From an uncultured Candidatus Saccharibacteria bacterium (lineage in GTDB: Bacteria > Patescibacteriota > Minisyncoccia > Phycocordibacterales > WO2-35-19), in NCBI GenBank assembly GCA_964365465.1, contig CAYIPT010000003.1, positions 1 through 42,226 of the forward strand: a stretch of 42,226 nucleotides of DNA, in the 5' to 3' direction. Under the pieces are notes generated by a model. The model had not been told where the DNA came from and made no database searches. It saw only the letters and a list, made by a program, of their open reading frames with translations. Made by a program: the position numbers and the translations under genes. Below are positions 12,411-42,226 of this stretch, in pieces. Numbering within the stretch: the first letter of the stretch is position 1; each line of letters opens with the position of its first letter.

Positions 12411-14090
12411 ATGAAAAAAAGTTATAAAGACATAGCTCCCGATGAAATTTTTATGGACTCGGAAAATTTGCCGGGGTTTGATTTGCACCAATTTGAGGGC
12501 CGGCTTGAAAAACCTATTTCTCCCAAAGTTTTTTCTTTTTTTTGTTTGGTTTGTTCCTTGGTGGCGATTATTTTTTTAGTAAAATTTGTTTCTTTGCAAA
12601 TCGTCCACGGTTCGGAATATAGAGAAAGAAGCGAAAATAACAAACTAAAACAAATTTTACTGGTGGCGCCGAGGGGCGCGATATACAGCCGGGATGGCAA
12701 GCTACTGGCCTGGAATGAAAAAACAGATAACGAAGCAGATTTTCCTTCACGAAAATATATTAAAGATTCTGGATTCTCCAATCTTTTAGGATTTTTAAAA
12801 TATCCCGCCAAAGACAAAGCCGGCTTTTATTATGAAGAAGAATTTTTACCCAAAGACGGAGCGGAACTTTACTTGAATGAAATACTTTCCGGCCGAAACG
12901 GTTTTAAGTTTATAGAAACATCGGTTAACGGAGAAATGGTTTCTCAGAGCGTTATTCAGCCGCCCAAAGGGGGCGAAGACGCTGTTTTGTCTGTTGACGC
13001 CGGAGTGCAAAACGAATTTTATAAAATAATGAAAAATCTTTCCGCTGATGTCGGTTTTCAGGGCGGAGCGGGAGCTATTATGGATATTAATTCCGGAGAA
13101 ATGCTAACAATGGTCAGTTTTCCCGAATACAATTCGGAAATAATGACCGAAGGAAGTGACGCTCAAAAAATACAAAATTATTACAAAGACGCGCACAACC
13201 CTTTTTTGAATAGAGTTATATCTGGACTTTATACGCCAGGATCAATTGTCAAGCCATTTTTGGCTTTTGCCGCTCTGGAAGAAAAAATTATTACACCTGA
13301 AAAAGAAATAATAAGCACTGGCAAAATTGAAGTGCCCAATCCCTATGATCCCGACAAACCGTCTATTTTTAAGGACTGGAAAGCTCACGGAGCGGTTGAT
13401 ATGAGAAGAGCTATCGCGGTTTCCTCCGATGTCTATTTTTATGAAATAGGCGGAGGATTTAGCAATCAAAAGGGCTTGGGTATTGATAGAATAAAAAAAT
13501 ATTTGGAAACATTTGGCTTTACAAAAAAAACAGGCTTTGATTTTCAAAAAGAAGCTGTTGGCGTTATTCCGGACCCGGTCTGGAAAGGGAAGACATTTAA
13601 TGGGGAAATATGGCGCATTGGAGATACTTACAATACTGCTATTGGCCAATACGGAATGCAAATTACTCCCATTCAAATGGTTGTGGCAACAGCCGCTCTA
13701 GCCAACGGGGGCAAATTGGTGTCGCCCACAATTTTATTTACATCTACCAGCACCATTTCTTCCGGTGCAAAAATAAAAGGCGCTTCTGAAAGTTTTCAAA
13801 TTGTGAGGGAGGGAATGCGAGCTAGCGTGGCCGAGAACGGTACGGCTGCGGGGTTAAATATAGAGGCGGTGAAAGTGGCGGGAAAAACAGGTACGGCTGA
13901 ACTCGGTTCACGAAAGCAATTTGTTAATTCTTGGGTCATTGGATTTTTTCCTTATGAAAAGCCAAAATACGCTTTTGCTGTTGTAATGGAAAAAGGTCCA
14001 GCCGCTAACTTAACTGGCGCCGTTTTCGTTATGCGTTCTCTTTTGGACTGGATGGCGATCAATACGCCGGAGTATTTAAAGAATGAATAA
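12411..14090 (+). CDS. mrdA: Class B penicillin-binding protein 2
   Basis: APRG.IY.RDG, PGSIVK (SxxK), SSD, KTGTAE; mre operon context. Confidence 0.88.
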   Translation: MKKSYKDIAPDEIFMDSENLPGFDLHQFEGRLEKPISPKVFSFFCLVCSLVAIIFLVKFVSLQIVHGSEYRERSENNKLKQILLVAPRGAIYSRDGKLLAWNEKTDNEADFPSRKYIKDSGFSNLLGFLKYPAKDKAGFYYEEEFLPKDGAELYLNEILSGRNGFKFIETSVNGEMVSQSVIQPPKGGEDAVLSVDAGVQNEFYKIMKNLSADVGFQGGAGAIMDINSGEMLTMVSFPEYNSEIMTEGSDAQKIQNYYKDAHNPFLNRVISGLYTPGSIVKPFLAFAALEEKIITPEKEIISTGKIEVPNPYDPDKPSIFKDWKAHGAVDMRRAIAVSSDVYFYEIGGGFSNQKGLGIDRIKKYLETFGFTKKTGFDFQKEAVGVIPDPVWKGKTFNGEIWRIGDTYNTAIGQYGMQITPIQMVVATAALANGGKLVSPTILFTSTSTISSGAKIKGASESFQIVREGMRASVAENGTAAGLNIEAVKVAGKTGTAELGSRKQFVNSWVIGFFPYEKPKYAFAVVMEKGPAANLTGAVFVMRSLLDWMAINTPEYLKNE

Positions 14091-22570: not shown

Positions 22571-25318
22571 ATGGAATTTCCTCTGCCAAAAACTCCTTTC
22601 AAAAACACGGAAGATGAGATAACTCATTTGCGCCGTTTAATTGCCGAAAAGGAAAGAGCGCTGGAAAATATAGGCCTTAAAAAAGAATCTCTAGCGCCAA
22701 CCAGAGAAACTTTGGCGGAATATAAAACAGTGCCGGCCGGCGCGACTCTTCATCCGGAATATGAAATAAAAAAAGAAGAATTAGAAAAAATAGTCCTTAA
22801 ACTTTTTCCCGAAGAACATGATAAGCAAATCTCGGAGCTGGTTTTGCTGGCCAAAGAAAAAGGCATAAAAAATGCCCTTTCAGTGGTTGAAAAAATGGCA
22901 AATTTTCATATTACGGATGATTTTCACAGATTTATGGCCGAATATTTAAAAGAAGGATTCACCATACCGGGGCTGAATGTAAAAGAAAAAATTTCAAAGG
23001 GGCTCAATATGGCTTTGTATGAAATTTTAATACAGGAGGAAAGTGAAAAAGATAATATTAAAAATACTTTGGAAGAGGTGATTTCGGGCATGGAGCAATT
23101 TTATGCCGGTATGCTTTCCATTGCCGATTCGGATAAGCGCGAAGAAAGCTGGATGTCTTTGGAAATTGCCAATGCCAATTTTTCCCAAGAAATAGTTTTT
23201 TACGCAGCCGTGCCGAGCGCCCGCAAAAATCTTTTTGAAAAGCAAATTTTATCAATTTTTCATAACGCCAAAATTGCAGAAAAACCGGATGATTATAATA
23301 TTTTCAACGAAACCGGTCACACTGCCGGCGTCCGCGCCTCTTTTACAAAAAACCCCATTTATCCCCTGAAGACCTATGAAAGTTTTATGCACGATCCTCT
23401 CAATGTCATTCTTTCTTCATTTTCAAAAGTGAATAGAGACGGCGAAGGAGCCGCCATCCAGCTTATTTGGTCGCCGGCAGGAGAAAAATATGTCAAAAGA
23501 TACAAGAGCGCTTTGGATAAAATCCAAAAGGGCGCGCCTCTCAAAGAGGCCATAGACATACCCGATAGCATATCGGGAGAAGTTCTGCATACTTTCAAAG
23601 ATCTTTTCTCGTCTTCCAAAAAGAAAGACGAAAAGGGGGAAGAGAAAAAATCGGAACCCATTGATCAGGGAGCGGTAGAAGAAATAAAAAATAAAATCTC
23701 GGCGCCCATAGTATTATGCAATTTGCGTTTGCTGGCATCATCCGGCACCAAAGAGGAAGCGGAAGAAATATTAAGTTCCCTTAAATCAAGCTTCAATCAG
23801 TTTGATAACACTCTAGGCAACGCCTTAGAGTGGAAAAAAGAAGAAAAGGGGGGATTGAGAAATTTGGTCAGAAATTTCAGTTTCCGCATTTTTGACAATA
23901 ATAACGCTTTGCCAATGAATTTGAGAGAAGTCACTTCCATTATGCATTTTCACACCAAAGCGCTCTCTGCTTCCGAGGGTTTGCGTCAATCAAGGTCGGC
24001 AACCGCGCCAGCGCCTCTTGATATTGCCAAAGAAGGAATTTTGCTTGGCGTAAACAACCACAAAAATATAAATACAGAAATAAGAATGTCGGAAGACGGC
24101 GATCGCCTCAGACATTTTTATTGCATAGGCCAGACTGGCACCGGTAAAACCTCTTTGATTAGAGAAATGATAATTCAAGATATGAAAATGGGTCATGGAG
24201 TTTGTATGATTGACCCGCATGGCTCCGACCTTCAGCAGGTAATGGCCAATGTGCCGCCAGAGCGCTTTGACGATGTCATTTATTTTGATCCAGCTTACAC
24301 GGCGCGGCCTATGGCTCTCAATATGCTTGAATATGACGAAAATTTTCCGGAACAAAAGACATTTGTGGTTAATGAGCTTTTCAGCATTTTCAGAAAACTT
24401 TATGGCGCTATACCGGAATCAATGGGTCCCGCTTTTGAGCAATATTTCAGAAACTCGGCTCTTCTGGTGATGGATGATCCGACCTCGGGCAACACTTTGG
24501 TTGATATGTCTCGGGTTCTTTCAAATAAGCCATACAGAGACCTTAAAATATCAAAATGCAAAAATCCTCTGGTTAAGCAGTTTTGGGTCAATGCCGAAAA
24601 AACCACGGGCGAACAGGGTTTGGCCAATTATGTCCAATATGTAACCAATAAATTTGATGTCTTCCTGGCCAACGATATTATGCGGCCGGTTATTGCCCAG
24701 GAAAAATCATCCTTCAATTTTCGCGACATTATGGATAACAAAAAAATACTTTTGGTTAATCTTTCCAAGGGGCGGCTGGGAGATATAAACGCCAATCTTA
24801 TCGGTTTGGTTTTGGTTGGCAAAATTCTTATCGCCGCTCTTTCGCGCACCGATTCCTTCGGCAAGGACTTTCCGCCTTTTTATTTATACATAGATGAATT
24901 TCACAATATAACCACCGATTCCATTTCCACCATTCTTTCCGAAGCAAGAAAATATAAACTTTCTCTTATAATTGCCCATCAATTTATTGCCCAACTGGAA
25001 GAGGGGATTAAAAATTCGGTTTTTGGCAATGTCGGTTCAATTTGCGCTTTTAGAGTGGGCGCCGAGGACTCCGAAGTTTTGGAAAGTCAATTTGCTCCCG
25101 TTTTTTCCGCCAGTGATTTGATGAATATAGACAATCTTAACGCTTATTTGCGGCTTATGGTAAATGGCAAACCGGCAAAACCTTTTAATATAAAAATACC
25201 TCCATGGTCGCAAGGGAACAGCGAACAAGTAGAAAAACTGAAAGAGATGTCTTATATAAAATACGGCAAACCCCGCGAGGAAGTTGAAAAACTTATTTTG
25301 GAGAAATATAAAATATAA
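22571..25318 (+). CDS. TrwB/TraD/HerA-FtsK superfamily P-loop ATPase (coupling-protein-like)
   Basis: GQTGTGKT, IDPHG, LYIDEFHN, SEARKY.LSLIIAHQ, FGNVGS..AFRVG.ED. Confidence 0.85.
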   Translation: MEFPLPKTPFKNTEDEITHLRRLIAEKERALENIGLKKESLAPTRETLAEYKTVPAGATLHPEYEIKKEELEKIVLKLFPEEHDKQISELVLLAKEKGIKNALSVVEKMANFHITDDFHRFMAEYLKEGFTIPGLNVKEKISKGLNMALYEILIQEESEKDNIKNTLEEVISGMEQFYAGMLSIADSDKREESWMSLEIANANFSQEIVFYAAVPSARKNLFEKQILSIFHNAKIAEKPDDYNIFNETGHTAGVRASFTKNPIYPLKTYESFMHDPLNVILSSFSKVNRDGEGAAIQLIWSPAGEKYVKRYKSALDKIQKGAPLKEAIDIPDSISGEVLHTFKDLFSSSKKKDEKGEEKKSEPIDQGAVEEIKNKISAPIVLCNLRLLASSGTKEEAEEILSSLKSSFNQFDNTLGNALEWKKEEKGGLRNLVRNFSFRIFDNNNALPMNLREVTSIMHFHTKALSASEGLRQSRSATAPAPLDIAKEGILLGVNNHKNINTEIRMSEDGDRLRHFYCIGQTGTGKTSLIREMIIQDMKMGHGVCMIDPHGSDLQQVMANVPPERFDDVIYFDPAYTARPMALNMLEYDENFPEQKTFVVNELFSIFRKLYGAIPESMGPAFEQYFRNSALLVMDDPTSGNTLVDMSRVLSNKPYRDLKISKCKNPLVKQFWVNAEKTTGEQGLANYVQYVTNKFDVFLANDIMRPVIAQEKSSFNFRDIMDNKKILLVNLSKGRLGDINANLIGLVLVGKILIAALSRTDSFGKDFPPFYLYIDEFHNITTDSISTILSEARKYKLSLIIAHQFIAQLEEGIKNSVFGNVGSICAFRVGAEDSEVLESQFAPVFSASDLMNIDNLNAYLRLMVNGKPAKPFNIKIPPWSQGNSEQVEKLKEMSYIKYGKPREEVEKLILEKYKI

Positions 25319-26045: not shown

Positions 26046-26119
26046 GGGCCTGTAGCTCAGCTGGCTAGAGCGCTGCTATGGCATAGCAGAGGTCGCCCGT
26101 TCGAACCGGGTCAGGTCCA
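26046..26119 (+). tRNA. tRNA-Ala(GGC); probable integration site
   Basis: Acceptor GGGCCTG/CAGGTCC with G3.U70; anticodon arm CTGCT-ATGGCAT-AGCAG (A32-U38); T arm GCCCG-TTCGAAC-CGGGT. Confidence 0.95.
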
Positions 26120-27692
26120 CATCGTCGGAATTAGAGACAGCAAACTGCTCAAATAACCTTGTGTAGCTTTGTATTTTATCGGTTCGATAACCTTCTTTTT
26201 GGTCATACCACAATTTTTCCTCAAAGATAAAGAAAAACATCTTATGTTTTTCAACCAAAGGCAATTTTTTCCAAACAACATATGGACTTTTTAGAAAATT
26301 GGTAGATTTATCCAATGCAGTTCGATAAGGGATTGAATAGTCAGTTTTTCCAATAAGCTGATCGTCCAATATTTCTATTTTGTTTAAGATTTCTTTCAGT
26401 TGGCCTTTATATGCCCGAGTTAACTGATCATCAGTTGAATTAACGATAAGATCTGTGAGCCTCTTTGTTTTTTCTTCAAGAAGGGCTTTCTCTTGTTTTT
26501 TCTCCATATCTCTCTCTACAAACGCAGATATTTCTTGCTTCCATGTTCGGTCAAAAACCAGTTTAACCACATCGCCCACGTTTTTCTTGAGCTTTTGTTG
26601 TTTTATGATTGTATCAAGCTTTTTTTCTACATCGTCTCCAAACAATGATTTTCTGTACATCTTGCAGTCCCTATTCTGACAAAAGTAGTATGGGCGCTTG
26701 TACAATCCTTTGTTTTTCGTTGTTGTGGCCCCCGTAAGATGTTTACCACAACAGGCACACACGATTAAACCTCTGGCCGGAAATTCATCTGTGATATCCT
26801 TCCTTATCCTTTTACCCGTCAATTCATTGTTTAATCTTTTTTGATTTAACTCGAAAGTTTCAGCTGAGATTATAGCTTCGTGGTGGCCTTTTCTACGAGA
26901 TACTTCCCAAGGCAGATATTCAATGTCACCCATATAGAAGGGGTCTTTTAGCATGCTGGTAAATTCATCCGTATACTTTTCGGGATATTTTCCTTTCCAA
27001 AATCCTTTTTCCATAAGATATCTACATCCGTCAACCCTTCTTATAAAATTACCAGTGGAAAAACTTTCCAAGGCGTGCCTGATAATCGGGGCCTCTTTTT
27101 TGTTGGGAACAGCCAGAGTTCCGCATTTAGGATCTTTCACCATTTCATATCCTCTTTTGGCTACGAAAGCCCAATACCCTAACTCTAGGCGGGCTTTTGT
27201 TTTTTGAATAACTTGCCTTCTGTTTTGATGTCTTTCCAGTTCAGCTTGCGCCGCCATGATAGTCTCTACAAATCGTCCCTCATCGCTTTCATCAAATTGG
27301 AAATTTAAACATTTCAAAACCACATCCCTTGCTTTAAATACCGCTCTAAGTTTTAGATGAAATTCGGTATCTCTAGCAAATCTTTTTAGATCGTCGAATA
27401 TAACCAAGAACTTTTTATGGGGATTTGCGTCTATATAGGCGAGCATCTCTCTCATTGCCGGTCTTTTCATAAAGTCACCACCCCCGGAGTAGCTGTCTCT
27501 GAAAGATCGTTTGTAAGTTACTTGAATAGAATTGAGTTCCTTGACGCATCTCCCTTCCTGGGTTTGCAATCCAGTGCCGTCAATTTCCTGTCTTTTACTC
27601 GATACGCGGGCGTATACTAAACCCTCCATACCTTCATAAGGATTTTCTATCTTAGACTTCTGGGTTATTTGGCTGTTTGCTTTGAACGACAT
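26076..27692 (-). CDS. Large serine recombinase (resolvase, recombinase, Zn-ribbon and coiled-coil domains)
   Basis: YARVSS..Q catalytic motif, SGG....RP, DDLKRFAR, HEAIIS.ETF, CACC...YYFC....C. Confidence 0.93.
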   Translation of the reverse strand: MSFKANSQITQKSKIENPYEGMEGLVYARVSSKRQEIDGTGLQTQEGRCVKELNSIQVTYKRSFRDSYSGGGDFMKRPAMREMLAYIDANPHKKFLVIFDDLKRFARDTEFHLKLRAVFKARDVVLKCLNFQFDESDEGRFVETIMAAQAELERHQNRRQVIQKTKARLELGYWAFVAKRGYEMVKDPKCGTLAVPNKKEAPIIRHALESFSTGNFIRRVDGCRYLMEKGFWKGKYPEKYTDEFTSMLKDPFYMGDIEYLPWEVSRRKGHHEAIISAETFELNQKRLNNELTGKRIRKDITDEFPARGLIVCACCGKHLTGATTTKNKGLYKRPYYFCQNRDCKMYRKSLFGDDVEKKLDTIIKQQKLKKNVGDVVKLVFDRTWKQEISAFVERDMEKKQEKALLEEKTKRLTDLIVNSTDDQLTRAYKGQLKEILNKIEILDDQLIGKTDYSIPYRTALDKSTNFLKSPYVVWKKLPLVEKHKMFFFIFEEKLWYDQKEGYRTDKIQSYTRLFEQFAVSNSDDVDLTRFERATSAMP

Positions 27693-27904: not shown

Positions 27905-28723
27905 CTAATTTGTTAAACGCTTATTTTTTGTAACCTTTACTGATTTACGCTTTCCTGCCACATAATTGACCTCTATTTTCCCATAGGCACCATCTCTCTC
28001 CATTTCTGCTTGGATTTGATAATTCGGCCGAGGAATCGTTTCTGTTTTTGATGTTTCGATTTCAGAAATTTTGCTTTTCTTTGCCTTTATTATCACCTCA
28101 TCTCCTTGCCTTATAGTTTTTATCCCCTCGGATTCAGCATCGGTTAGCCATTCAAGAGGTTTGGGAGGTGCTACACTAGCTCCCAATTCGTCCAAGATTG
28201 ATTTAATGGAAATCAGCAGAAAATCATTATTTTTACGATGCAACATTTTTGCTTGCCCGATCTCTTCATTGCTTGCAATACCAGCAACTCCATTGACAAG
28301 GGCAACTATATACGGATCGTCTGTGGTGAACCAAGCTCTGTAAATATAATATTCAAGATCGGGATAAGCATTTAATTTCTTATCCCAGTCAATGAGAGAT
28401 TTTTTTGCACGAGCGATTTTATCCAATGAAAACCCATACTCCCTAAAATGTTGTATGACTTTTAACCAGACCATTTCAACCAATGAAAATTTGCGCCAAC
28501 CGGCACCATCTTTGAGTCCCTGGGGAAGTAACCCGGCTTTATCCCAGTGATTAATAACTCTGTAACTTATGTTTGATGTTCCTACTGTGTATGAACGCAT
28601 GTTTAATATAATCCTATTGTTAAAATTTTCTTTAGAAAAATATTTCGGGAAAGTGGCGAGATACACTTCACCTTTGGGTAAAAAATATTTATCTGTCTCC
28701 AACCACCCCACCTTTCTCTTCAT
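27905..28723 (-). CDS. MerR-family HTH regulator-like protein
   Basis: ISYRVINHWDKAGLLP......WRKFS..EMVWLKVI..FR.YGFSL.KI. Confidence 0.75.
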   Translation of the reverse strand: MKRKVGWLETDKYFLPKGEVYLATFPKYFSKENFNNRIILNMRSYTVGTSNISYRVINHWDKAGLLPQGLKDGAGWRKFSLVEMVWLKVIQHFREYGFSLDKIARAKKSLIDWDKKLNAYPDLEYYIYRAWFTTDDPYIVALVNGVAGIASNEEIGQAKMLHRKNNDFLLISIKSILDELGASVAPPKPLEWLTDAESEGIKTIRQGDEVIIKAKKSKISEIETSKTETIPRPNYQIQAEMERDGAYGKIEVNYVAGKRKSVKVTKNKRLTN

Positions 28724-28843
28724 GAGATGAATTATACACGAATGTAAGGTTTAGCCAAGCCCACCTGTGGACAAGAATGAGCCACTTTTGGTTGTTGTAA
28801 ATAATCTGTGGCGGAGTTAGTATTAAGCTACAATTGAATATTG

Positions 28844-28990
28844 GAGTAGCCTAAACTCGGCCTTGCCGGGCATGGCGAAAGAAGACGTACAAAGTAAAAA
28901 ACCCATCATGGGATTGCTTTGTACGCCGTATCGGGAAACCGGTACGAGAGGGTTCGCCCTCTGCCCGTGGTGGGCTTTTTGCGTATAAAA
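28844..28990 (+). ncRNA. Putative structured RNA / cis-regulatory switch
   Basis: GAAA- and UUCG-capped hairpins inside an 11-bp closing stem followed by a U tract; competing 12-bp helix. Confidence 0.7.
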
Positions 28991-29006: not shown

Positions 29007-29126
29007 ATGATTCCATTTTTAATTTTCTCGCTTTCTTCTTTTGTGATTGCGATGGTATTAATTGGTGAAAAATTCGATATTATTTCACCTGCCGGAAAAT
29101 TTTTAGATGAATTAAAGAAAAAATAA
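29007..29126 (+). CDS. Unannotated 39-aa hydrophobic peptide
   Basis: MIPFLIFSLSSFVIAMVLIGEKFDIISPAGKFLDELKKK*. Confidence 0.5.
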   Translation: MIPFLIFSLSSFVIAMVLIGEKFDIISPAGKFLDELKKK

Positions 29127-29140
29127 TTATTATAAAAACT

Positions 29141-30202
29141 ATGAAAAATAAAATTCTTGTCTTAATTTTGGTTATATTAATAGCAATCCCGCAAGTAACT
29201 TTTGCCGCCTGGTGGAATCCCGTCTCCTGGTTTGAGAGAATAATATCATTTTTTAATCAACCAAAAATTGAACAATCAATATCTTCTCAAGAAGAGGAAG
29301 ATAAAAATATTTCAACAACCACAATTCCTTCACTGGATGACCAAAATAAAATAGAGGGCAATCAAATAAAGGAAAAAACAGAAGTCCAAAAAACTGAAGA
29401 AACAAGATTAAAAAACGAAGCTCGAGTAGCAGAGTTAAGGCTTAAACAGCAACAAGAAGAGGCGGAAAGAATTGCCAGAGAAAAAGAAGCCGCCACTAAA
29501 AAACAAGCGGAAATATTGGCTCAAGCCGCTCAGATAGCCAATCAAGCGACAAAGACCAGAACTCTTGAATTGATCAGTGATATTTTATTGAAGTTAAACC
29601 AGTTACTGACAGATACGGAGCAAGAGATTGCAAAATCAAATACCAACCTAGACTCTACCGCAAATCGCGCTGATTCTGCCAGTCAAACTTTCAGAACACT
29701 CACTATAAATTATCTTGGAGGACTTACATTCTCTAAGCCGGGTTTACAGCAGGTGATAAACAACAAAAAAGCAGAAAAAAGTAAGTTTGAGCAAAACAGT
29801 TTGGAGTCATTTGTTAATTTTGATCCCGACACGAACTTCAAAGAAACTTTGAGTCTTTTAGCGTCTCTGCGGTCTCAATTTGAAAGCCAAAAAGCTGAAT
29901 ACCAGGGTTATTTCAACACTTATCTCAATAATCTTTCAGCCGCTACTCAAGTGCAACAACAAAACAACTATTCCACAAACACTGTCCCAAAGGGCACTTA
30001 TTGCAACGGGACATATTATTCCAGTTGTCCGGCTTCCTATGATTTTATTTGCCCGGCAAGCGGGGGTTCAGCTTATTGCCAACCAACTACACCCCCCGTC
30101 GATACTGCTCTGTTGGAAAAGTGCCAAGCTATTATGAATAGAACCGTATCAACAACAATCATTATCGGAGAATTAAGAGCCGCCGGCTGTCCGGGTTATT
30201 AA
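29141..30202 (+). CDS. Secreted coiled-coil protein with WWNP.SW N-terminus and Cys-rich C-terminus
   Basis: Signal peptide ending TFAA-WWNPVSWF; long helical region; six C-terminal cysteines. Confidence 0.8.
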   Translation: MKNKILVLILVILIAIPQVTFAAWWNPVSWFERIISFFNQPKIEQSISSQEEEDKNISTTTIPSLDDQNKIEGNQIKEKTEVQKTEETRLKNEARVAELRLKQQQEEAERIAREKEAATKKQAEILAQAAQIANQATKTRTLELISDILLKLNQLLTDTEQEIAKSNTNLDSTANRADSASQTFRTLTINYLGGLTFSKPGLQQVINNKKAEKSKFEQNSLESFVNFDPDTNFKETLSLLASLRSQFESQKAEYQGYFNTYLNNLSAATQVQQQNNYSTNTVPKGTYCNGTYYSSCPASYDFICPASGGSAYCQPTTPPVDTALLEKCQAIMNRTVSTTIIIGELRAAGCPGY

Positions 30203-34820: not shown

Positions 34821-35219
34821 ATCAATTCCTCCAAGAAAAGTCTAACATTATAAGTCAGTTTTGTAAATATGCCCAGGATTTTTCCCTTTTATAATTTTTC
34901 AAAACAAAGATTCTAACAAAAATGACCGAGATGTATCCGTTGTTCCAAACAGCGCAATTTTGGGTCATTTTTTTTATTTAGTTTTTGTTAATGTCATTAA
35001 CTTTGTTAACATCCTAGAAGGGTATGATATGTGTAGGTTCTACTCACATTGGTATTTTCCTTACCGATAGGATAATCTTTAACCAGAGAGGATTCTATGA
35101 CCTCTCAACTATTACCAAGTATTAACGATCTTAAGACTCGAACACACATTCGGTTCCAAGAGATAGGTTCTAACGTCATTCATTAATTTCCACAGATAAG
35201 ATTTATGAATTTTTATTTT

Positions 35220-36215
35220 CTATCGCGAGTTTTGGAGTTTAAGCAACAACGCGTTGACTTGAGCTTGCAGAATTTTGATTTGCTCTTGAAGAGATAGGGT
35301 TGAGGGAGCTAGACATGAAGCGCTTGAAAGCAATGGGTTGATTCTGGCTCTGGTTTTGGGGCCGACAGAACCGTAACCTGTGGTCAAAGGAGTACCAGAA
35401 GAGACAATTCCCTGGGCTGCCTGGAATTTTTTGACTGCCGCCTCGGTGAGAGGTCCGAAGAAGCCCGTGTTGTTTCCAGTATCCAGATGGCCTTTGGAAA
35501 TGAGGAAGTTCTGCAGGTTGGTGACATCCTGCCCCTTGAGGCCCCGATAGAGATTGCGGACCAGGGAAGAAATAATTGCTCCCGGAACACAGGCCGTTCC
35601 TCCGCCGCCAGTGCTCCCACCCCCGCCTCCACCCGAACTTCCTCCGCCCCCGCCCCCGCCCGATGAACTGCCGGAAGAACTCGATCCGCCAGTGCCGCTT
35701 CCGCCTGAAGATGGGCTATTTATGGTGTAAGTTCCATTGACAACAGCGCTCAAGGTATCCGCGCCGCCCGCGGCTACATTTGAGTCGGTGGTGGCGCCGG
35801 CAGTGTGGTTAAAAATAATGCTGGCCGTTCCCGCCAATAATGCCTTAAAAGTAAGAGTGACCAAAGCGCCGGAACCCCGGTACTTGTTGCCCCCTGCGGT
35901 TACCTGAGAAAAAGTGATTCTGCCGAAATTCGTGTCAACGCTGTTAGCCAAAGTCATTGACATTAAACTTCCCGGAGCAATCTGGACCCCAGAGACGGAA
36001 GCATTGGCATCCTGCAACTGGAGAAGACCGGGATTGTAATTGAGATATCTCAAATCAACGCCGTCAATGGATGCCCCTTGGGTGTCAAGATTTACAACAA
36101 CTGAAAATGTGTCTCCCACATTAACACTTTGCGATGAAGGAGAAACTGACAATGTGGCGGCCGACGCCAAAAACGGCAACAGTAGGCCAATCGCGATAAA
36201 AGATATTTTTTTCAT
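35220..36215 (-). CDS. Secreted cohesin - Gly/Ser linker - peptidoglycan-binding domain protein
   Basis: Signal peptide; cohesin-type pattern V.VGDTFSV.V...LNYNP.LLQ...GSG.L.TLTFKA; LYRGLKGQDVTNLQNFL..TGFFGPLTEAAVKKFQ..VGPKTR. Confidence 0.85.
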   Translation of the reverse strand: MKKISFIAIGLLLPFLASAATLSVSPSSQSVNVGDTFSVVVNLDTQGASIDGVDLRYLNYNPGLLQLQDANASVSGVQIAPGSLMSMTLANSVDTNFGRITFSQVTAGGNKYRGSGALVTLTFKALLAGTASIIFNHTAGATTDSNVAAGGADTLSAVVNGTYTINSPSSGGSGTGGSSSSGSSSGGGGGGGSSGGGGGGSTGGGGTACVPGAIISSLVRNLYRGLKGQDVTNLQNFLISKGHLDTGNNTGFFGPLTEAAVKKFQAAQGIVSSGTPLTTGYGSVGPKTRARINPLLSSASCLAPSTLSLQEQIKILQAQVNALLLKLQNSR

Positions 36216-36266
36216 AATATTATCTTGTTAATTATTAATCTTATACTTTGTAATTTTACATTGTTG

Positions 36267-38171
36267 CTACTCTCCCGCCAACATCCAATTATTGGAAAGG
36301 TAGGCAAAATCAAGAGAATTTACCAAGCCGTCCCTATTAACGTCAGCTAGGGTATCACTGGCGCCCCATTTGCCGTTCATATAGGAAAAGTCCAGGGAAT
36401 TAATCAGTTGGTCGCTGTTGAAATCGCCGGCCGGTAAAGTCGGGAAATTGACATCAAGAACCGAAATGTTCCTCAAATCAACGCCTCCAAGCAATTTAGA
36501 CAAATAACCGGAAACCACTGGCCGGAGAGTGACTGTCGGCAAAAGCCCTGCCGGCACATCTATCGTGTATTGCCCGGAAGTATTCGTGGTAAAGCTTGCC
36601 TGATATATCTTTGAACTGAGATTTGACGGGTTAAGAAATTCAACTGTTCCTGACACATTTCTCTGGCTGGCAGGCGTTCCCTCCGGAACCAAGATTATTC
36701 TTCTTTGGACTAAAAGGGAAAGCATCGGCGTAGTGGCGCTCACTGATGCCGACCTTGCCGAAACATTGCCCGCGACATCAACGGCGGCTACCTGATAGCT
36801 GTATGTAGCGCCGGCAGTCAGTCCCGTATCCAAATAGGCGGTGCTGGCCGTGGTGCCCAAAGAGACACCCCCGCGGAATATTTGGTAATCGGACACTCCA
36901 GACACTGCCTGTCCCGCACCGGTTGGATCTGTGGAAGCGGTCCATGAAATTTGGATTTGGTTTTCACTGGTAGCCGTAGCTGTGACCCCGGCGGGTACCG
37001 TCGGAGAAGTGGTATCCGGCAAAGTTTGAGTGGTCAATGAGTTGTCAAATGAGAGGGCCAGGTTTCCTGCCGCATCGCGGGATCTTATCATGTAATGATA
37101 AACGGTGCCGGCCGAAAGACCCGAAAGAGTCGCCGAGTGAGAAGTGGCTAAAGAGGAATTGAGCGCGGTTGAAGCGCCGTAAGAAGCGGTAAGCCCATAA
37201 TCAACCTGGGTATCGCCCGGTTCGTTGGTGGTCCATGTAATGGTGGCGCCAGAGACGGTGACTCCGGAGACGGCAATGGCGGAAATGGTGGGAGGCGTAA
37301 TGTCCGGCGGGGCTTGAGTGGTGGCACTCGCCGCCGATGAATAAGCGGATAAATTGCCGGCGGCGTCTGTCGCTCTGATTCTGTACCTATAAATGGTGCT
37401 CGCGGAGAGGCCTGTGTCAGAATATGAATTGACGGCGGGAGTGGCGACTTGAGAATAAGTGGTGCAGGTGGCGGACCCCGAACACCTTTCAACTCTGTAT
37501 CCGGTTACCGCCACATTATCAGTGGAGGCAGTCCAGGAAAGATTTATTTGGGAAGAGGACATAACATTCAAAGAAGGGGTGCCCGGAGCGGTGGGGGCGG
37601 TGATGTCAGGAAGGGAAGTAACAGTATAAGAGCCGCTTCCCGCGGAAGCCAGCAAATCCCCGCCCAGTCCGGCAACATTTGTGTCGGTGCTGTTGCCTAG
37701 AGAGAAATCAAAAGCGGTATTTGAAATCCCAACAGCCAAAGCGCGGAAAGTGATAACGGCCAGAGTGCCTGAACCGTTATAAGTGGAGCCGGGATTAGCC
37801 AGCTGAGAAAATTGGATTGAACCGCCCGTGTTGTCCGCCAAGTTTATTATAGTCAAAGGCATAAGAGCTCCCGCCGCAATCTGCGTTCCTGCTGACGCTC
37901 CATCGGCATCCACCACCTGCAAAACACTCGGATTAAAGTGAAGATGGTTAATATCAACTCCATAAGCTCCCTGCCCTCCGGTGTTAACGGCGATATTTAC
38001 AGTAAAAGTGTTATTGACTGAGGCGGAATAGGAAGACGGCGAAAGAGAAACAGATGCGGTCGGCGACACTTGGGCCAGCTGGGTGCCGGCTGGCATCCCC
38101 GCCAAAGTCGCCTGCAATGTGAGCAATATGGCGGTAAGGATGGATACGATTTGTTGCAATGTTTGAATCAT
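36267..38171 (-). CDS. Secreted cohesin - three Fn3-like domains - Ig-like - dockerin protein
   Basis: Cohesin paralogous to the neighbour; three D.T.P...W...L...T.Y.Y...D.AGN repeats; C-terminal GDFNSDQLINSLD / DVNRDGLVNSLD pair. Confidence 0.85.
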   Translation of the reverse strand: MIQTLQQIVSILTAILLTLQATLAGMPAGTQLAQVSPTASVSLSPSSYSASVNNTFTVNIAVNTGGQGAYGVDINHLHFNPSVLQVVDADGASAGTQIAAGALMPLTIINLADNTGGSIQFSQLANPGSTYNGSGTLAVITFRALAVGISNTAFDFSLGNSTDTNVAGLGGDLLASAGSGSYTVTSLPDITAPTAPGTPSLNVMSSSQINLSWTASTDNVAVTGYRVERCSGSATCTTYSQVATPAVNSYSDTGLSASTIYRYRIRATDAAGNLSAYSSAASATTQAPPDITPPTISAIAVSGVTVSGATITWTTNEPGDTQVDYGLTASYGASTALNSSLATSHSATLSGLSAGTVYHYMIRSRDAAGNLALSFDNSLTTQTLPDTTSPTVPAGVTATATSENQIQISWTASTDPTGAGQAVSGVSDYQIFRGGVSLGTTASTAYLDTGLTAGATYSYQVAAVDVAGNVSARSASVSATTPMLSLLVQRRIILVPEGTPASQRNVSGTVEFLNPSNLSSKIYQASFTTNTSGQYTIDVPAGLLPTVTLRPVVSGYLSKLLGGVDLRNISVLDVNFPTLPAGDFNSDQLINSLDFSYMNGKWGASDTLADVNRDGLVNSLDFAYLSNNWMLAGE

Positions 38172-38204
38172 GTTTTTATATTAATTATACGCCTTGATTA
38201 TACC

Positions 38205-38942
38205 CTATGGCGTCCAATTTTGAACCATAATGACGTAGTCAAGGGAGTTGACGATGGTGTCGTGGTTCAGGTCGTAAATGGCATTGTTTTGGTTCCAGGC
38301 CGTAATCATGAGAGATAAGTCAATTGAGTTAACGAGGCCGTCATTGTTGAAGTCGCCTATGATGGGGACGGAATATAAAGCGAGATAGTTCTCCACGCTC
38401 CAGCCGTCGGCGCCCGAATCATAATTCACATTCCACCAGAAGTATCCGTCGGCACTTGTTCCTCCACTGACAATAGTTCCAAGAGAGCCGAGAGATTGAG
38501 TTCCTAATAATGCGCCGGTGGCAGAAGCGGCCGCCCTAACATTGAGGTTTGATGTTGTTTGCACGCGCTGGCCAGCGAAAAACTTGATGGAGGGGGGAAT
38601 GGAGGGAGAGATTGCCTTGCTCACCTGGGGCGAGAAAACACTTTCATTATTTGAAGTGTCGTAGGCGCTGACGGAAAAATAATATGTCAGGCCGTCTGTC
38701 AAATTATTAAAAGTATAAGTCCTGACATTGCCGGCATTCACAGTATTTGAATATCCGCAAAGTCCGCAAATCTTTGGGTCAGTGCCGGTCCTTTGACCGG
38801 TGCCGTAATATATCTTGTATCCCGAAAGGTCCGGCTCAGTATTAGCGTTCCAAGTCACCGTGGCCGAACCGGCCAAAGCGGTGTTTGCATAAAAAGCGAA
38901 AAACAATACCGCCAGTAAAACCAAAACAAATTTATTTTTCAT
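38205..38942 (-). CDS. Secreted Fn3 - SH3-like - dockerin protein
   Basis: Signal peptide; WNANTEPDLSGYKIYYG..TYYFSVSAYDTSNNES; LNVR..GY.WW.V.Y..G..GW; GDFNNDGLVNSID / DLNHDTIVNSLD. Start placed at ATG 38942. Confidence 0.85.
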   Translation of the reverse strand: MKNKFVLVLLAVLFFAFYANTALAGSATVTWNANTEPDLSGYKIYYGTGQRTGTDPKICGLCGYSNTVNAGNVRTYTFNNLTDGLTYYFSVSAYDTSNNESVFSPQVSKAISPSIPPSIKFFAGQRVQTTSNLNVRAAASATGALLGTQSLGSLGTIVSGGTSADGYFWWNVNYDSGADGWSVENYLALYSVPIIGDFNNDGLVNSIDLSLMITAWNQNNAIYDLNHDTIVNSLDYVIMVQNWTP

Positions 38943-39028
38943 ATTATTTGCCATTAATATTAACGCCATTAATTATATATTAAGGAAAATTGGTTGGCTA
39001 GCGCTCCTGTGGATGCAGAAACCTGATT

Positions 39029-39775: not shown

Positions 39776-39906
39776 TTAATTAACGGTGACGCCGGAAGGG
39801 GCGGAGGTCCCGTCTCCGATCTTTGATCGGGACGAGGATCCTCGATTTTGTAACTCCGACTTCTTCGGAGACAAAATCGGGAGAGGAGTGGTGTCGGGCG
39901 TTCCCC
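39776..39906 (-). pseudogene. Orphan gene-tail copy C (GTPDTTP[hairpins]SAPSGVTVN*)
   Basis: Aligns with 42156-42210 once the ~75-nt palindromic insert (about 39808-39882) is removed. Confidence 0.7.
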
Positions 39907-39960
39907 ATTTATCCCGTCCCGCTTAGCGGGACTGGAAATTGTCCCACAGCGGGCCACTCC

Positions 39961-40956
39961 CTACTTCTTTTTCTTCTTTGCTCCCAGCAGCTTTTTCACC
40001 TCGCGGTCAAAGTCGGAAATGTAATCATGGTCCTGAATAACGCGGTATTTGTCATATTCTTTGAGCGCCAGGGCTTCGGCCACTTCGTGGCTGACTTTGC
40101 CGGCATTGCTTAAAATACCCTTTCCCAAAAGAGCCATGTATTCATCAAGCTTCTTAATCCAGTCCTTCATTGTCATTGCCAATTCGCTTTTGGCCTGGAC
40201 TTCGGCAAATGACAGGTATGCGTCAACAATACGATTAAGCATTTGGAGCTCCTTTTCATTCAAATAGTTTTTCGCTATGTAAATATCGCGCTGAATTGGA
40301 TTCAAGCCAGAAAAATTGGTCAGCCCCATTAGCGGCTTTTTACTATCGGCGCGTTCGGTTATAATTTCCGCCGCGGTCTTGCCGGATACCGCGTAATGCA
40401 TCTTATTTTGAACTGTTTTAAAAAACTTCTCGGTCTCTTTGGCATCCTTGCGATAGTCAACACTTGTAGCGTAAATATCGGTTACTTTTTGGTACAGCAT
40501 CCTTTCACTGGAGCGAATATCGCGAATACGCTCCAATAATTCTTCAAAATAACGCGATTTATATCCGCCCTGTTTAAGACGGATATCGTCCATGGTAAAA
40601 CCCTTGACCACATATTCCTTCAGACGGTCAGTCGCCCATTGGCGAAAAAGCGTGCCACGCTCGGAATTTACCCTATAGCCCACGGCGATAATCGCCTCCA
40701 ACCCGTACATCTTAGTATGGTACTCTTTCCCGTCCGCGGCAGTTATTAAGAATTCCTTAATAACTGAATCCTGCCTAAGCTCCCCTGTCTTAAATATGCT
40801 TTTAAGATGCATGTTAATATTGGGAACAGTTGTCCCAAACAGCTCTGCCATGAGCTTTTGCGTCAGCCACACATTTTCATGCTCAAAACGAACCTCTACC
40901 CGGGTTTTTCCGTCTTCCGTGGTGTAAATGATGATTTGTGATTTTTCTTTGGCCAT
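39961..40956 (-). CDS. RhuM/virulence-family DNA-binding protein
   Basis: VWLTQKLMAELF, IIAVGYRVNS, FRQWAT, KGFTMDD.RLK, IRDIRSSER, VQNKMHYA, AKNYL. Confidence 0.9.
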   Translation of the reverse strand: MAKEKSQIIIYTTEDGKTRVEVRFEHENVWLTQKLMAELFGTTVPNINMHLKSIFKTGELRQDSVIKEFLITAADGKEYHTKMYGLEAIIAVGYRVNSERGTLFRQWATDRLKEYVVKGFTMDDIRLKQGGYKSRYFEELLERIRDIRSSERMLYQKVTDIYATSVDYRKDAKETEKFFKTVQNKMHYAVSGKTAAEIITERADSKKPLMGLTNFSGLNPIQRDIYIAKNYLNEKELQMLNRIVDAYLSFAEVQAKSELAMTMKDWIKKLDEYMALLGKGILSNAGKVSHEVAEALALKEYDKYRVIQDHDYISDFDREVKKLLGAKKKKK

Positions 40957-40985
40957 TTTTAAATAATCAAGGATGAAGGATAATT

Positions 40986-41069
40986 TTAATTCACCGATAC
41001 TCCGCTGGGCGCCGCGGGCGGAGTAGTGTCGGGACTTCCCCCGCCGACATATTCATACGCGCCGATGTC
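40986..41069 (-). pseudogene. Orphan gene-tail copy B (DIGAYEYVGGGSPDTTPPAAPSGVSVN*)
   Basis: Intact 27-codon tail with no start codon, 20 nt after the previous stop; 31 nt identical to the window end. Confidence 0.8.
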
Positions 41070-41089
41070 CTTTGTTGGTTTCGAGTTTC

Positions 41090-42064
41090 TTAAACCTCGC
41101 TTATAACCTCAAATCCTTTAAAACTGCCGGTAATAGCCAAGCCAATAATTTGCTCCGCCAAATTTCTCTCTTTTATCTTTCTTGCCGTTTCATTGAGCGT
41201 AGCTCCAGAACCGAGCGCATCGTCTATTAGTAAAACGGTTTTAAATTTTCTGGCATCTTGCATAACTATGGTCCTGCTGGCATTTTCTATTCTGTCCTCA
41301 AGTTTAACCAGTGTTTTCTGCGGCACGGCTACTGGCGTTTTTATTTTAACAAGGTCAATCACCGGAAGAGGCAGCCGGAGCTGCTTTTCCAACTCTTTCA
41401 TAAGCTGGACCTCCCGCTTGACCGTCGGCGGTATAAATCCTACCGCGTTTACTTCAAACTTTTCTGCCAAAAAATTTATTTTGGGCTTGATTTCTTCAAC
41501 CAATTCTTTCATCAGATTTTTGTTCTGGCTTTGCTTGGCGTAAAGAAGCAGTTGGCCGAGTTTTGTTTTACCGAATCGTTCAATGCTGTAGAAATCCAGA
41601 TAAAACACTTTATCCAGAAAGACTTCATCAAAAGTGTGTTTTATTTTATACATGCCATCTACCAGCCCGTCTTTTTTATACATTGAATATTTCTTCAAGG
41701 TTTGGATATATTCTGTGGCTGTTTTTTCAACCGGCAATTTTTGCTTCTGGCACCAATAGGCAAATCCCCCCACTCCCTCTTGCCTTTCGCCGGAAGGAGT
41801 AATTACAAGAAAATTACCGCCGATTATTTTTTTCAAATTATCGCCAATTAGAAACGTCCCCGCCTCTTTAATTTTTTTCGGAGAAACAGAGTAAAAAACC
41901 TTTGGCGGTTTGCCGGCCTTATATATGATTTTTTCTTTAAGCAGCTTGTTAATCTGCCTGTGCACGGCCTGCCGACTGATGCCTAGATAATCAGAAAGTT
42001 CCCCAGCCGCGGCTTCTGGTCTGGTTTTTAGGTATTCAATTATTCTGTCACCCGTCTTTTTCAT
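41090..42064 (-). CDS. Winged-HTH plus phosphoribosyltransferase-fold protein
   Basis: ELSDYLGISRQAVHRQI HTH; VLLIDDALGSGATL PRPP-binding loop. Confidence 0.85.
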   Translation of the reverse strand: MKKTGDRIIEYLKTRPEAAAGELSDYLGISRQAVHRQINKLLKEKIIYKAGKPPKVFYSVSPKKIKEAGTFLIGDNLKKIIGGNFLVITPSGERQEGVGGFAYWCQKQKLPVEKTATEYIQTLKKYSMYKKDGLVDGMYKIKHTFDEVFLDKVFYLDFYSIERFGKTKLGQLLLYAKQSQNKNLMKELVEEIKPKINFLAEKFEVNAVGFIPPTVKREVQLMKELEKQLRLPLPVIDLVKIKTPVAVPQKTLVKLEDRIENASRTIVMQDARKFKTVLLIDDALGSGATLNETARKIKERNLAEQIIGLAITGSFKGFEVISEV

Positions 42065-42155
42065 GTTATAAATGTAGCATAATCTTAAAAAGTTTACAAT
42101 ACACTGTAAACTGTAAACTTAGTGATAAAAAAGAAAAGATTAATGATGAAGAATA

Positions 42156-42226
42156 TTAATTCACGGTGATACCGGAGGGGGCGGAGGGAGAAGTGGTGTC
42201 GGGACTTCCCCCGCCGACATATTCAT
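42156..42226 (-). CDS. 3' end of a probable secreted-protein gene entering from outside the window (tail copy A)
   Basis: Translates to (Y)EYVGGGSPDTTSPSAPSGITVN*. Cannot tell whether the upstream part is intact. Confidence 0.6.
   Translation of the reverse strand, partial: EYVGGGSPDTTSPSAPSGITVN

Follow-up and report, generated by a model that had tools for sequence, protein, structure and literature searches.

A LOOT RNA in a serine-recombinase island of an uncultured bacterium, its predicted tip–tail helix and its possible role as a cis-acting leader

We analysed a structured RNA on the plus strand of a 42,226-nucleotide stretch of DNA from an uncultured Candidatus Saccharibacteria bacterium (assembly GCA_964365465.1, contig CAYIPT010000003.1); this whole stretch is called the window. 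The interval 28848–28962 is a complete LOOT RNA gene, a member of the named Rfam family RF03000. The match covers model positions 1–121 of 121, lies on the plus strand only and scores 76.8 bits, well above the gathering score of 46.4 (Rfam 15), with E values of 7e-13 in the scan of the whole window and 1e-14 in a local scan. No Rfam family besides LOOT was found at 28848–28962, and a 21-bit snoRNA match is noise. A preliminary description of this DNA, made from its letters alone, had recognised no named family here and had held that a match to one would remove the novelty of the RNA; the first point was wrong, and the match does remove the novelty. All six LOOT helices (P1, P1a, P2, P2 tip, P3 and P4) pair in the window copy, five P2 tip pairs are flagged as non-standard in the model alignment, and the conserved CCUAA, AUGG and GAAA letters are present. 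The predicted fold favours the plus strand, as had been described, with a z score of −4.46 (0 of 200 shuffles as good) versus −3.31 for the minus strand. The parts of the window copy, including its putative promoter, are the following:

28818–28823 (+), hexamer TAGTAT resembling a −10 element, the putative LOOT promoter; aligns with the family TAnnnT / TGnTAnnAT
28830–28840 (+), conserved start motif ACAATTGAATA, the family ACAAY motif; predicted RNA 5' end
28848–28962 (+), LOOT as modelled by Rfam RF03000 (P1, P1a, P2, P2 tip, P3, P4)
28849–28876 (+), P1 (28849–51 with 28874–76) and P1a (28856–61 with 28865–70)
28886–28925 (+), P2, stem 28886–97 with 28914–25 and a 16-nt apical loop
28894–28912 (+), 5' strand of the predicted long-range helix, consisting of the P2 top, the A-tract 28896–28901 and the tip CCCAUCAUGGG; partner 28964–28982
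28927–28946 (+), P3 hairpin, GAAA loop at 28935–38
28947–28962 (+), P4 hairpin, UUCG loop
28963–28982 (+), 3' tail CCCGUGGUGGG, then C, the U-tract 28976–80 and GC; predicted RNA 3' end and terminator-like site, with covariation

Several pairings proposed in the preliminary description map directly onto this layout. Both tetraloop hairpins are perfect, namely CGTATCGG-GAAA-CCGGTACG (28927–28946), which is P3, and AGAGGG-TTCG-CCCTCT (28947–28962), which is P4. The proposed junction strand TTGCTTTGTACG (28914–28925) pairs with CGTACAAAGTAA (28886–28897), and the duplex is the family helix P2, with the junction strand as its 3' strand. The stem that was said to enclose the two hairpins is present as well: CCCATCATGGG (28902–28912) and CCCGTGGTGGG (28964–28974) are complementary at 11 of 11 positions, with 2 G.U pairs and an energy of −19.0 kcal/mol, and the letters CTTTTT follow at 28975–28980. 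A small leading GAGT/ACTC hairpin (28844–28858) fared less well; its 4 bp exist, but they clash with P1/P1a, and the 5' arm is unconserved as judged by eye in alignment A1.

In the literature searched, LOOT is given as ~43 base pairs in six helices (methods paper PMC7657543), is shown in Rfam 14 as a metagenome-based family derived from Weinberg/Breaker alignments (PMC7779021), and received two additional covarying pairs in Rfam 15 (PMC11701678). The passages found in the searchable literature name LOOT in passing and give no function, and the 2017 discovery paper does not mention it in its main text. The Rfam model ends at P4 (position 121, which is 28962), leaving outside both the 3' tail and the pairing of this tail with the P2 loop. 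The model also contains neither promoter nor start motif, and it draws a local P2 tip hairpin, in which we saw no covariation. The comparison adds a conserved 3' domain that is absent from the public model, is predicted to pair with the P2 loop and carries a U-tract. LOOT is among the few structured RNAs specific to candidate-phyla bacteria and may be confined to those with ultra-small genomes: in the genomes sampled here it was found only in relatives with very small genomes.

For the comparative analysis, 35, 40 and 29 LOOT copies were collected beyond that of the window, from relatives at genus/family/order, class and phylum depth, respectively, and 7 further copies were taken from viral contigs. 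The covariation counts are based on alignment A2, a structure-blind MAFFT alignment of 75 copies (74 distinct rows), in which the P2 columns are poorly aligned (~55% paired). Directly 3' of P4, the family tail follows the consensus aCCYGUGGYGGGCUUUUUGY. The seven tip–tail pairs (28902–08 with 28968–74) are standard-paired in 91.6% of the cells, compared with 73.3 ± 1.1% in shuffles and 34–65% in slid controls. Cells changed on both sides number 108, versus 34.8 ± 6.1 in shuffles, and none of the 500 shuffles reaches 108. Single pairs show true exchange, for example AU 21, GC 20 and CG 19 at one, and AU 42 and GC 24 at another. Additionally, the seven pairs between the A-tract with the P2 top (28894–28900) and the U-tract with two more letters (28976–82) are formed in 86.6% of the cells, with 49 double changes versus 14.5 ± 3.0, a count again reached by 0 of 500 shuffles. 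On the same alignment, P3 is paired in 96.6% of the cells. The local tip and tail hairpins are paired in 67% and 60% (59.9%), respectively, and together show 23 double changes versus 19.2 in shuffles, with 97 of 500 shuffles reaching that number; having no covariation, they were dropped as conserved structure. The LOOT copies share kinship, and shuffle controls therefore overstate the significance of these counts, which makes the slid controls, together with the comparison of own and other tails, the fairer measures.

In that comparison, each LOOT body was paired with its own tail and with those of other copies. The own tail gave −27.9 kcal/mol and the others −18.5 kcal/mol (75 copies); it beat dissimilar tails in 94.4% of 4798 comparisons, was best or tied in 22/75 copies and stood among the top five in 53/75. 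Against shuffled tails the z score was −4.1, and it fell below −2 in 70/75 copies. The preference was repeated in the 29 copies from other classes (−26.2 versus −18.0 kcal/mol), and the tip–tail pairing was seen by eye in 7/7 copies from viral contigs. P2 could be delineated automatically in 93/104 copies, and in 93/93 of these 7 or more pairs of the best duplex with the tail fall within the P2 apical loop. The median share of P2 loop letters that pair with the tail is 78%, and the duplex reaches −20 kcal/mol or lower in 91/93. P2 itself is a contiguous helix of 9–14 bp in 90 of the 93 delineated copies. In the window, the duplex of 28894–28912 with 28964–28982 has an energy of −24.9 kcal/mol. 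Judged by sequence comparison, the long-range tip–tail helix is real and conserved across the family. The enclosing stem of the preliminary description covaries across the 75 copies and is the best-conserved long-range pairing of LOOT, though outside the Rfam model. Two other readings were set aside. An inverted repeat acting at the DNA level, such as a recombinase or operator site, does not fit, as only one strand tolerates G.U pairs and the model finds a match solely on the plus strand. Nor does T-box-like pairing with a tRNA 3' end, for which the tip would have to be conserved as NCCA.

The position of this helix points to a terminator. With the U-tract defined as at least 5 U in 7 letters and a local terminator hairpin as at least 5 bp, a U-tract stands 3' of the tail in 93/104 copies and a local hairpin precedes it only in 13/104; therefore, the conserved helix adjacent to the U-tract is the tip–tail helix. 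The helix, the A-tract and the U-tract together look like one intrinsic terminator, as far as sequence can tell, whose loop would consist of the P2 3' strand, P3 and P4. P2 (regions 1:3) and the tip–tail helix (regions 2:4) interleave. Nearly every letter of the 20–22-nt P2 apical loop has a complement in the tail, and the duplex enters the P2 5' strand by a median of ~3 nt. On geometric grounds, a duplex of ~20 bp probably could not form within a closed P2, while one of ~14 bp might. For the window copy, the Rfam fold with the local terminator was computed at −60.2 kcal/mol and the fold with P2 open and the long helix formed at −60.7 kcal/mol. In keeping with the two-state RNA of the preliminary description, these two window folds are iso-energetic by computation; their mutual exclusion would follow from geometry only.

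LOOT also carries the signature of a tertiary contact. The P3 loop is GAAA in each of the 99 copies (of 104) for which the two 3' hairpins could be resolved; that of P4 varies (GAAA 37, GCAA 32, UUCG 17, and others). The P1 internal loop reads CCUAA(A/C) / (C/U)AUGG in the family and CCUAAA / CAUGG in the window. The letters 28851–54, 28872 and 28874 are invariant in 75/75 copies, and the sixth letter of the P1 loop, 28855, covaries with 28871 (A/C 58, C/U 11, C/C 5, A/U 1). We compared this loop with the 11-nt GAAA-tetraloop receptor, using the consensus as printed in PMC2615604. The two agree in the core letters of the P1 loop, alongside the fixed P3 GAAA loop and the variable P4 loop; they differ in the sixth letter and its partner, which are A/C or C/U in LOOT and G/U in the canonical receptor. 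The P3 GAAA loop may accordingly be pictured as docking on the receptor-like P1 loop.

Upstream of LOOT, the family layout is TAnnnT (often TGnTAnnAT), then 6–7 nt, then ACAAYTnAATA. The ACAAY motif lies within 70 nt upstream of LOOT in 57/74 copies, compared with 267/2040 random windows (13%). TAnnnT stands 3–12 nt 5' of the start motif in 51/57 motif-bearing copies, with a modal spacing of 6–7 nt, and TG is also present in 26 of the 51. The distance of the start motif to the −10-like hexamer is fixed and that to P1 is variable (6–62 nt), and since the motif keeps its distance to the −10-like hexamer and not to P1, it is taken to mark the transcript start. A consensus promoter scan did not report TAGTAT at 28818–28823. 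In the window, complements of the start motif with up to 2 mismatches number 16 versus 29 expected, which gives no lead to a target in trans.

The sequences downstream of LOOT suggest how the helix might be used. A copy of the tip strand follows right after the U-tract (+21 to +28) and can pair with the tail, with the U-tract in the loop, at z below −3 in 11/75 copies; weaker tip-strand copies were seen by eye in roughly 25 of 75. A separate terminator-like hairpin lies further downstream in 8/104 copies, and three of the eight (G029_C5, G128_C8 and G207_C3) were examined in detail. Their layout is that of a four-region attenuator, in which the tip copy can alternatively pair with a tail-like box followed by a U-tract. 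In another subset, a copy of J1/2 and the hypervariable P2 5' strand lies 0–7 nt 5' of an ATG or GTG or overlaps the start codon. This P2-strand copy scores at least 12 in 12/75 copies, the 99th percentile for mismatched bodies and flanks being 11, and at least 10 at the P2 strand in 16/75. Such leaders were folded with nearest-neighbour energies (15 counted, G018 left out). When the upstream strand was blocked, the start-codon copy paired with the P2 3' strand in 11/15 leaders, and in these 11 the two folds differ by 0.1–6.9 kcal/mol. In G071 and G128_C3, the minimum-energy fold itself pairs the P2 3' strand with the copy and encloses P3, P4 and the hairpin of tail and tip copy. Strand copies were also seen by eye in other classes (L113, L116, L121, L132 and L133). 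By analogy, one sensor joined to either a terminator or a start-site-sequestering platform would be the pattern of a cis-regulatory RNA. These downstream strand copies at terminators and start codons are a second addition of the comparison and point to control in cis.

The flanking complementary targets of the preliminary description thus occur in subsets of the relatives; they were not found at the window copy. One of them, the pairing of 28918–28926 with downstream GCGTATAAA (28981–28989), does exist in the window (9 bp, one G.U, −9.9 kcal/mol), but comparison gives it no backing: in G024, P2 differs and the downstream letters are nearly the same as those of the GCGTATAAA region. Downstream of LOOT in the window, a search for repeats detected no second instance of the P2 5' strand, and the best repeat is not at P2.

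The genome that holds this LOOT copy is 649 kb in 43 contigs, 96% complete, and contains one LOOT; the sequencing runs that hold this DNA are groundwater metagenomes. Same-genus synteny covers 19000 to ~26020 (penicillin-binding protein, tRNA-Glu, DUF378, a 915-aa ATPase and a small ORF) and stops past ~26020, the ATPase block being matched in 16/16 same-genus genomes. The continuation of this flank in one relative matches the beginning of a different contig of the genome studied here. Because the synteny ends at ~26020 and the flank continues elsewhere, the segment from 26021 to at least 42226 is regarded as an island of at least 16 kb, and LOOT sits 2.8 kb inside it. The features around LOOT in the island are the following:

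26046–26120 (+), tRNA-Ala(GGC), left edge of the island (ARAGORN; local Rfam tRNA match, 57.2 bits)
26076–27692 (−), large serine recombinase, 538 aa (Pfam Resolvase, Recombinase and Zn_ribbon_recom; PHROG integrase)
27905–28723 (−), 272-aa protein with a MerR-type helix-turn-helix (Pfam MerR_1, E 7e-10), divergent from LOOT
29007–29126 (+), 39-aa hydrophobic peptide ORF, first gene behind LOOT; no Pfam/PHROG family
29141–30202 (+), 353-aa protein with a signal peptide; no Pfam/PHROG family

The last ~15 codons of the serine recombinase overlap the tRNA-Ala on the opposite strand. The tRNA itself (26046–26120) was missed by the whole-window Rfam scan at the gathering threshold. Two same-genus relatives carry a tRNA-Ala(GGC) of quite different sequence at the syntenic place, so the island may have brought or replaced its tRNA-Ala. 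An attR copy of the tRNA 3' end was found neither in the window nor elsewhere in the assembly. A promoter-like site for the minus strand lies at 28758–28731. Behind LOOT, the first ATG stands 26 nt past the U-tract, and further small membrane proteins follow the 353-aa secreted protein co-directionally. The 39-aa ORF (29007–29126) would encode an N-terminal hydrophobic helix and a charged tail, and has the look of small membrane toxins or holin-like peptides. At 35000–39000, the G+C content is 0.46–0.53 versus ~0.40 elsewhere, and cohesin, dockerin and fibronectin-III surface proteins are encoded on the minus strand. Direct repeats (24–84 nt, 80–88% identical, spaced 1135–1170 nt) occur at 39883–42226 and precede three tandem genes of ~325–330 aa on the minus strand at the contig end. 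The 915-aa ATPase outside the island (22571–25318) is VirD4/TraG/HerA-like (PHROG 5156, E 1e-82) and looks like a mobile-element gene; a reading of the island as a conjugative element on the strength of this protein was rejected, as the gene is syntenic in 16/16 genomes and lies outside the island. A filamentous-phage reading was suggested by PMC6813254, and no Zot-type family was found among the Pfam matches of the window.

Across the family, LOOT is patchy, occurring in 22/61, 29/151 and 30/151 genomes at the three depths (this genome included) and in 0/14 control genomes; 6/16 genomes of the genus have it, and a single genome may carry as many as 6 copies. In five genomes, 10/13 large-serine-recombinase genes have a LOOT within 7.2 kb. 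Specifically, G008 has a LOOT within 4 kb of 5/5 recombinase genes, three of them on one 31-kb contig. On its contig C17 (L035, L036), LOOT lies at 9573, 17549 and 27207 and a recombinase at 12772, 19324 and 29965, and the three pairs look like a tandem array of small integrative elements. A serine recombinase was found within 8 kb at 39/75 LOOT sites, which is a lower bound with the BLAST detection used; of the 36 sites where none was detected, about 22 offered less than 8 kb of sequence on one flank. The commonest layout places the recombinase upstream on the opposite strand (25 sites), followed by downstream and co-directional (8). Terminase and ParB-methylase modules adjoin several LOOT copies, and the strict-pattern matches on viral contigs are LOOT in 7/7 cases (76–94 bits). 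The tight association with serine-recombinase islands and prophages is a third addition of the comparison. Separately, a reverse transcriptase of ~345 aa lies 0.2–2.5 kb from LOOT at 3 of the first 35 sites (L045:8310-9335, L044:4824-5873 and L054:2654-3703), with Pfam RVT_1 on the member tested.

The genes around the LOOT loci, which are simple ORF calls, are arranged as expected for a leader in one respect. Of the 73 sites having a downstream gene of at least 60 aa, 65 have the nearest such gene in the same direction as LOOT, and at 47 it starts no more than 150 nt away. On the upstream side, divergent genes are found at 37 sites and co-directional ones at 35. A hydrophobic N-terminus marks the first downstream protein in 30/47 cases, compared with 207/1125 among all the ORFs predicted in these loci. 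Most downstream proteins are singletons outside any Pfam/PHROG family, and an N-terminal hydrophobic segment is their sole common trait. No conserved regulator was found beside LOOT, the upstream divergent proteins being unrelated singletons. Two small protein groups recur. A secreted family with a signal peptide followed by A(S/A)WWNP(F/V/L)SW is found as first or second gene behind LOOT (the window protein at 29141–30202, G008_C17_27207, G008_C17_9573 and G004_C13_79138) and has no Pfam/PHROG family. Small proteins with a zinc-ribbon-like CxxC...CxxC motif are the first gene behind LOOT in G021, G053, G154_C13, G128_C8, G128_C10 and G176; the motif is N-terminal, and a hydrophobic segment follows it in some (e.g. 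G021 and G053).

The reading we favour is that LOOT acts as a bistable cis-acting leader for the co-directional genes of its serine-recombinase island, a proposal whose chances we consider about even. If the tip–tail helix forms, transcription would stop at 28976–82 and an RNA of ~150 nt would be released; if the tip is held back, the polymerase would continue into the genes that encode small membrane proteins and secreted proteins. The tip might be held back by a closed P2, in a compact fold clamped via the P3 GAAA loop and the receptor-like P1 loop, and a bound factor might aid this compact P2-closed fold. A single rule could cover the different leaders. A closed P2 would leave the tail and the P2 3' strand occupied or free such that transcription and translation proceed; with the extended helix, transcription would stop at the U-tract or at a second terminator, and the freed P2 3' strand could cover the start site. 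We infer from the layout that the tip–tail helix terminates, that the two folds are mutually exclusive and which sign the control has.

Several observations weigh against a switch of this kind. The window copy has neither a downstream tip-strand copy (z = +1.4) nor a P2-strand copy, and control in cis at this locus therefore rests on the relatives. The window copy also belongs to the 13 with a local terminator hairpin (5 bp, GCCCG..UGGGC, then TTTTT), which alone is weak (−7.0 kcal/mol). Termination would be expected from any helix adjacent to the U-tract, local or long-range, and the pairing alone therefore gives no switch. A static pseudoknot of P2 with ~14 bp of tip–tail helix is conceivable on steric grounds and would account for the covariation with no need of two states, and the kinship of the copies adds to the caution with which the shuffle counts are to be taken. 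Rfam types LOOT as 'Gene; sRNA'. The nearest downstream gene is convergent at 8/73 sites, and the downstream genes form no consistent functional class, unlike classical riboswitch regulons. A search of sequencing runs with this DNA returned 4 DNA runs from one groundwater study and no RNA run.

Many of these points are shared by a stand-alone small RNA (sRNA), acting in trans or structurally, which would have its own promoter and always end at the U-tract. Here the tip–tail helix would be a static pseudoknot, serving as terminator stem and 3'-end lock; the RNA would have its effect at another place, for instance on a protein of the element or host to which it binds, and the downstream genes would be controlled separately. 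The Rfam type, the conserved promoter with its start motif and the U-tract in 93/104 copies agree with such an RNA, as do the compact tertiary signature (invariant GAAA loop and receptor-like loop), the missing conserved downstream gene family and the window copy without downstream strand copies. The covariation of the A-tract with the U-tract(+2) suits it too, since this part of the helix can form only once the RNA is released or the polymerase has read through, and it would fold the 3' end away. It leaves unexplained, however, the copy of the P2 5' strand at the next start codon in 12–16/75 copies, as well as the tip copies and the four-region layouts. Moreover, the RNA is mostly base-paired and offers few free letters for action in trans, and complements of its 5' motif are not in excess in the window (16 versus 29 expected). 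The downstream ATGs mostly lie 38–70 nt past the end of the Rfam model (~20–50 nt past the U-tract), so near the U-tract that little room is left for a separate promoter. On the whole, we consider a stand-alone sRNA the main rival of the leader, though the less likely of the two.

An immunity RNA of the P4 CI or P1 c4 type, to which the preliminary description had alluded, seems improbable. In this case, the released LOOT or the leader would pair through the tail and the P2 3' strand with transcripts of the same element, stopping their transcription or translation, and the hypervariable P2 and tip would confer specificity. LOOT does lie in the leader of its supposed target operon and inside integrative elements (39/75 sites, 10/13 recombinase genes, 7/7 viral-contig matches), complementary sequences flank the tail and the P2 3' strand upstream and downstream in subsets, and genomes may hold several diverged copies (up to 6) that differ in tip and P2 letters. 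However, the pairing strands are locked in stable helices of LOOT itself, the targets are missing in most copies, that of the window included, and LOOT is larger than CI/c4 and unrelated in structure, with no other Rfam family matched.

A chance arrangement, in which an ordinary terminator stands beside unrelated hairpins and two similar GC-rich palindromes happen to match, could appeal to the two 11-mers being near-palindromes, for which some mutual complementarity is expected, and to the local terminator-like hairpin of the window, but it is hardly credible and already contradicted by the full-length family match, by the family tail, which is no palindrome and pairs locally in 59.9% of the cells versus 91.6% with many double changes for tip–tail, and by the control with own and other tails.

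Returning to the bistable cis-acting leader, we tentatively propose, with chances clearly short of even, a more general form of it: LOOT may be the sensor domain of an unrecognised class of cis-regulatory RNAs in serine-recombinase elements of ultra-small bacteria. In such a class, a tertiary-structured RNA would sit in the loop of its own terminator, and its fold, answering to a ligand, a protein or an RNA, would decide on the expression of membrane and secreted genes by strand mimicry, realised as split terminator, four-region attenuator or start-site sequestration. If LOOT is indeed such a switch, it would represent a new attenuator design and a first handle on mobile-element regulation in these uncultivated bacteria. 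The extended LOOT model improves the annotation of the family even if the switch reading fails.

The proposed leader can be set beside three known groups of regulatory RNAs. The phage P4 CI and P1/P7 c4 RNAs are small structured RNAs in the leader of the operon they control, with complementary sequences on both sides. LOOT resembles them in its place in an operon leader inside an integrative element; its fold and size are unrelated, and flanking targets occur only in LOOT subsets and not in the window. In trp-type four-region attenuators and the refolding hok mRNA (hok/sok), mutually exclusive pairings decide between termination or start occlusion and expression. LOOT has no leader peptide, its first region lies within a tertiary-structured RNA and no antisense gene was seen; the likeness is the order of tip, tail, tip copy and tail copy with U-tract in G029_C5, G128_C8 and G207_C3. 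The pseudoknot-type transcriptional riboswitches (ZTP, fluoride and preQ1-I) combine a compact sensor with a long-range helix that shares letters with the terminator, and their members use either a terminator or a start-site-sequestering platform. LOOT differs from these in having no shared downstream gene family and in that its helix abuts the U-tract itself; it resembles them in joining a putative sensor to a long-range helix that uses terminator letters.

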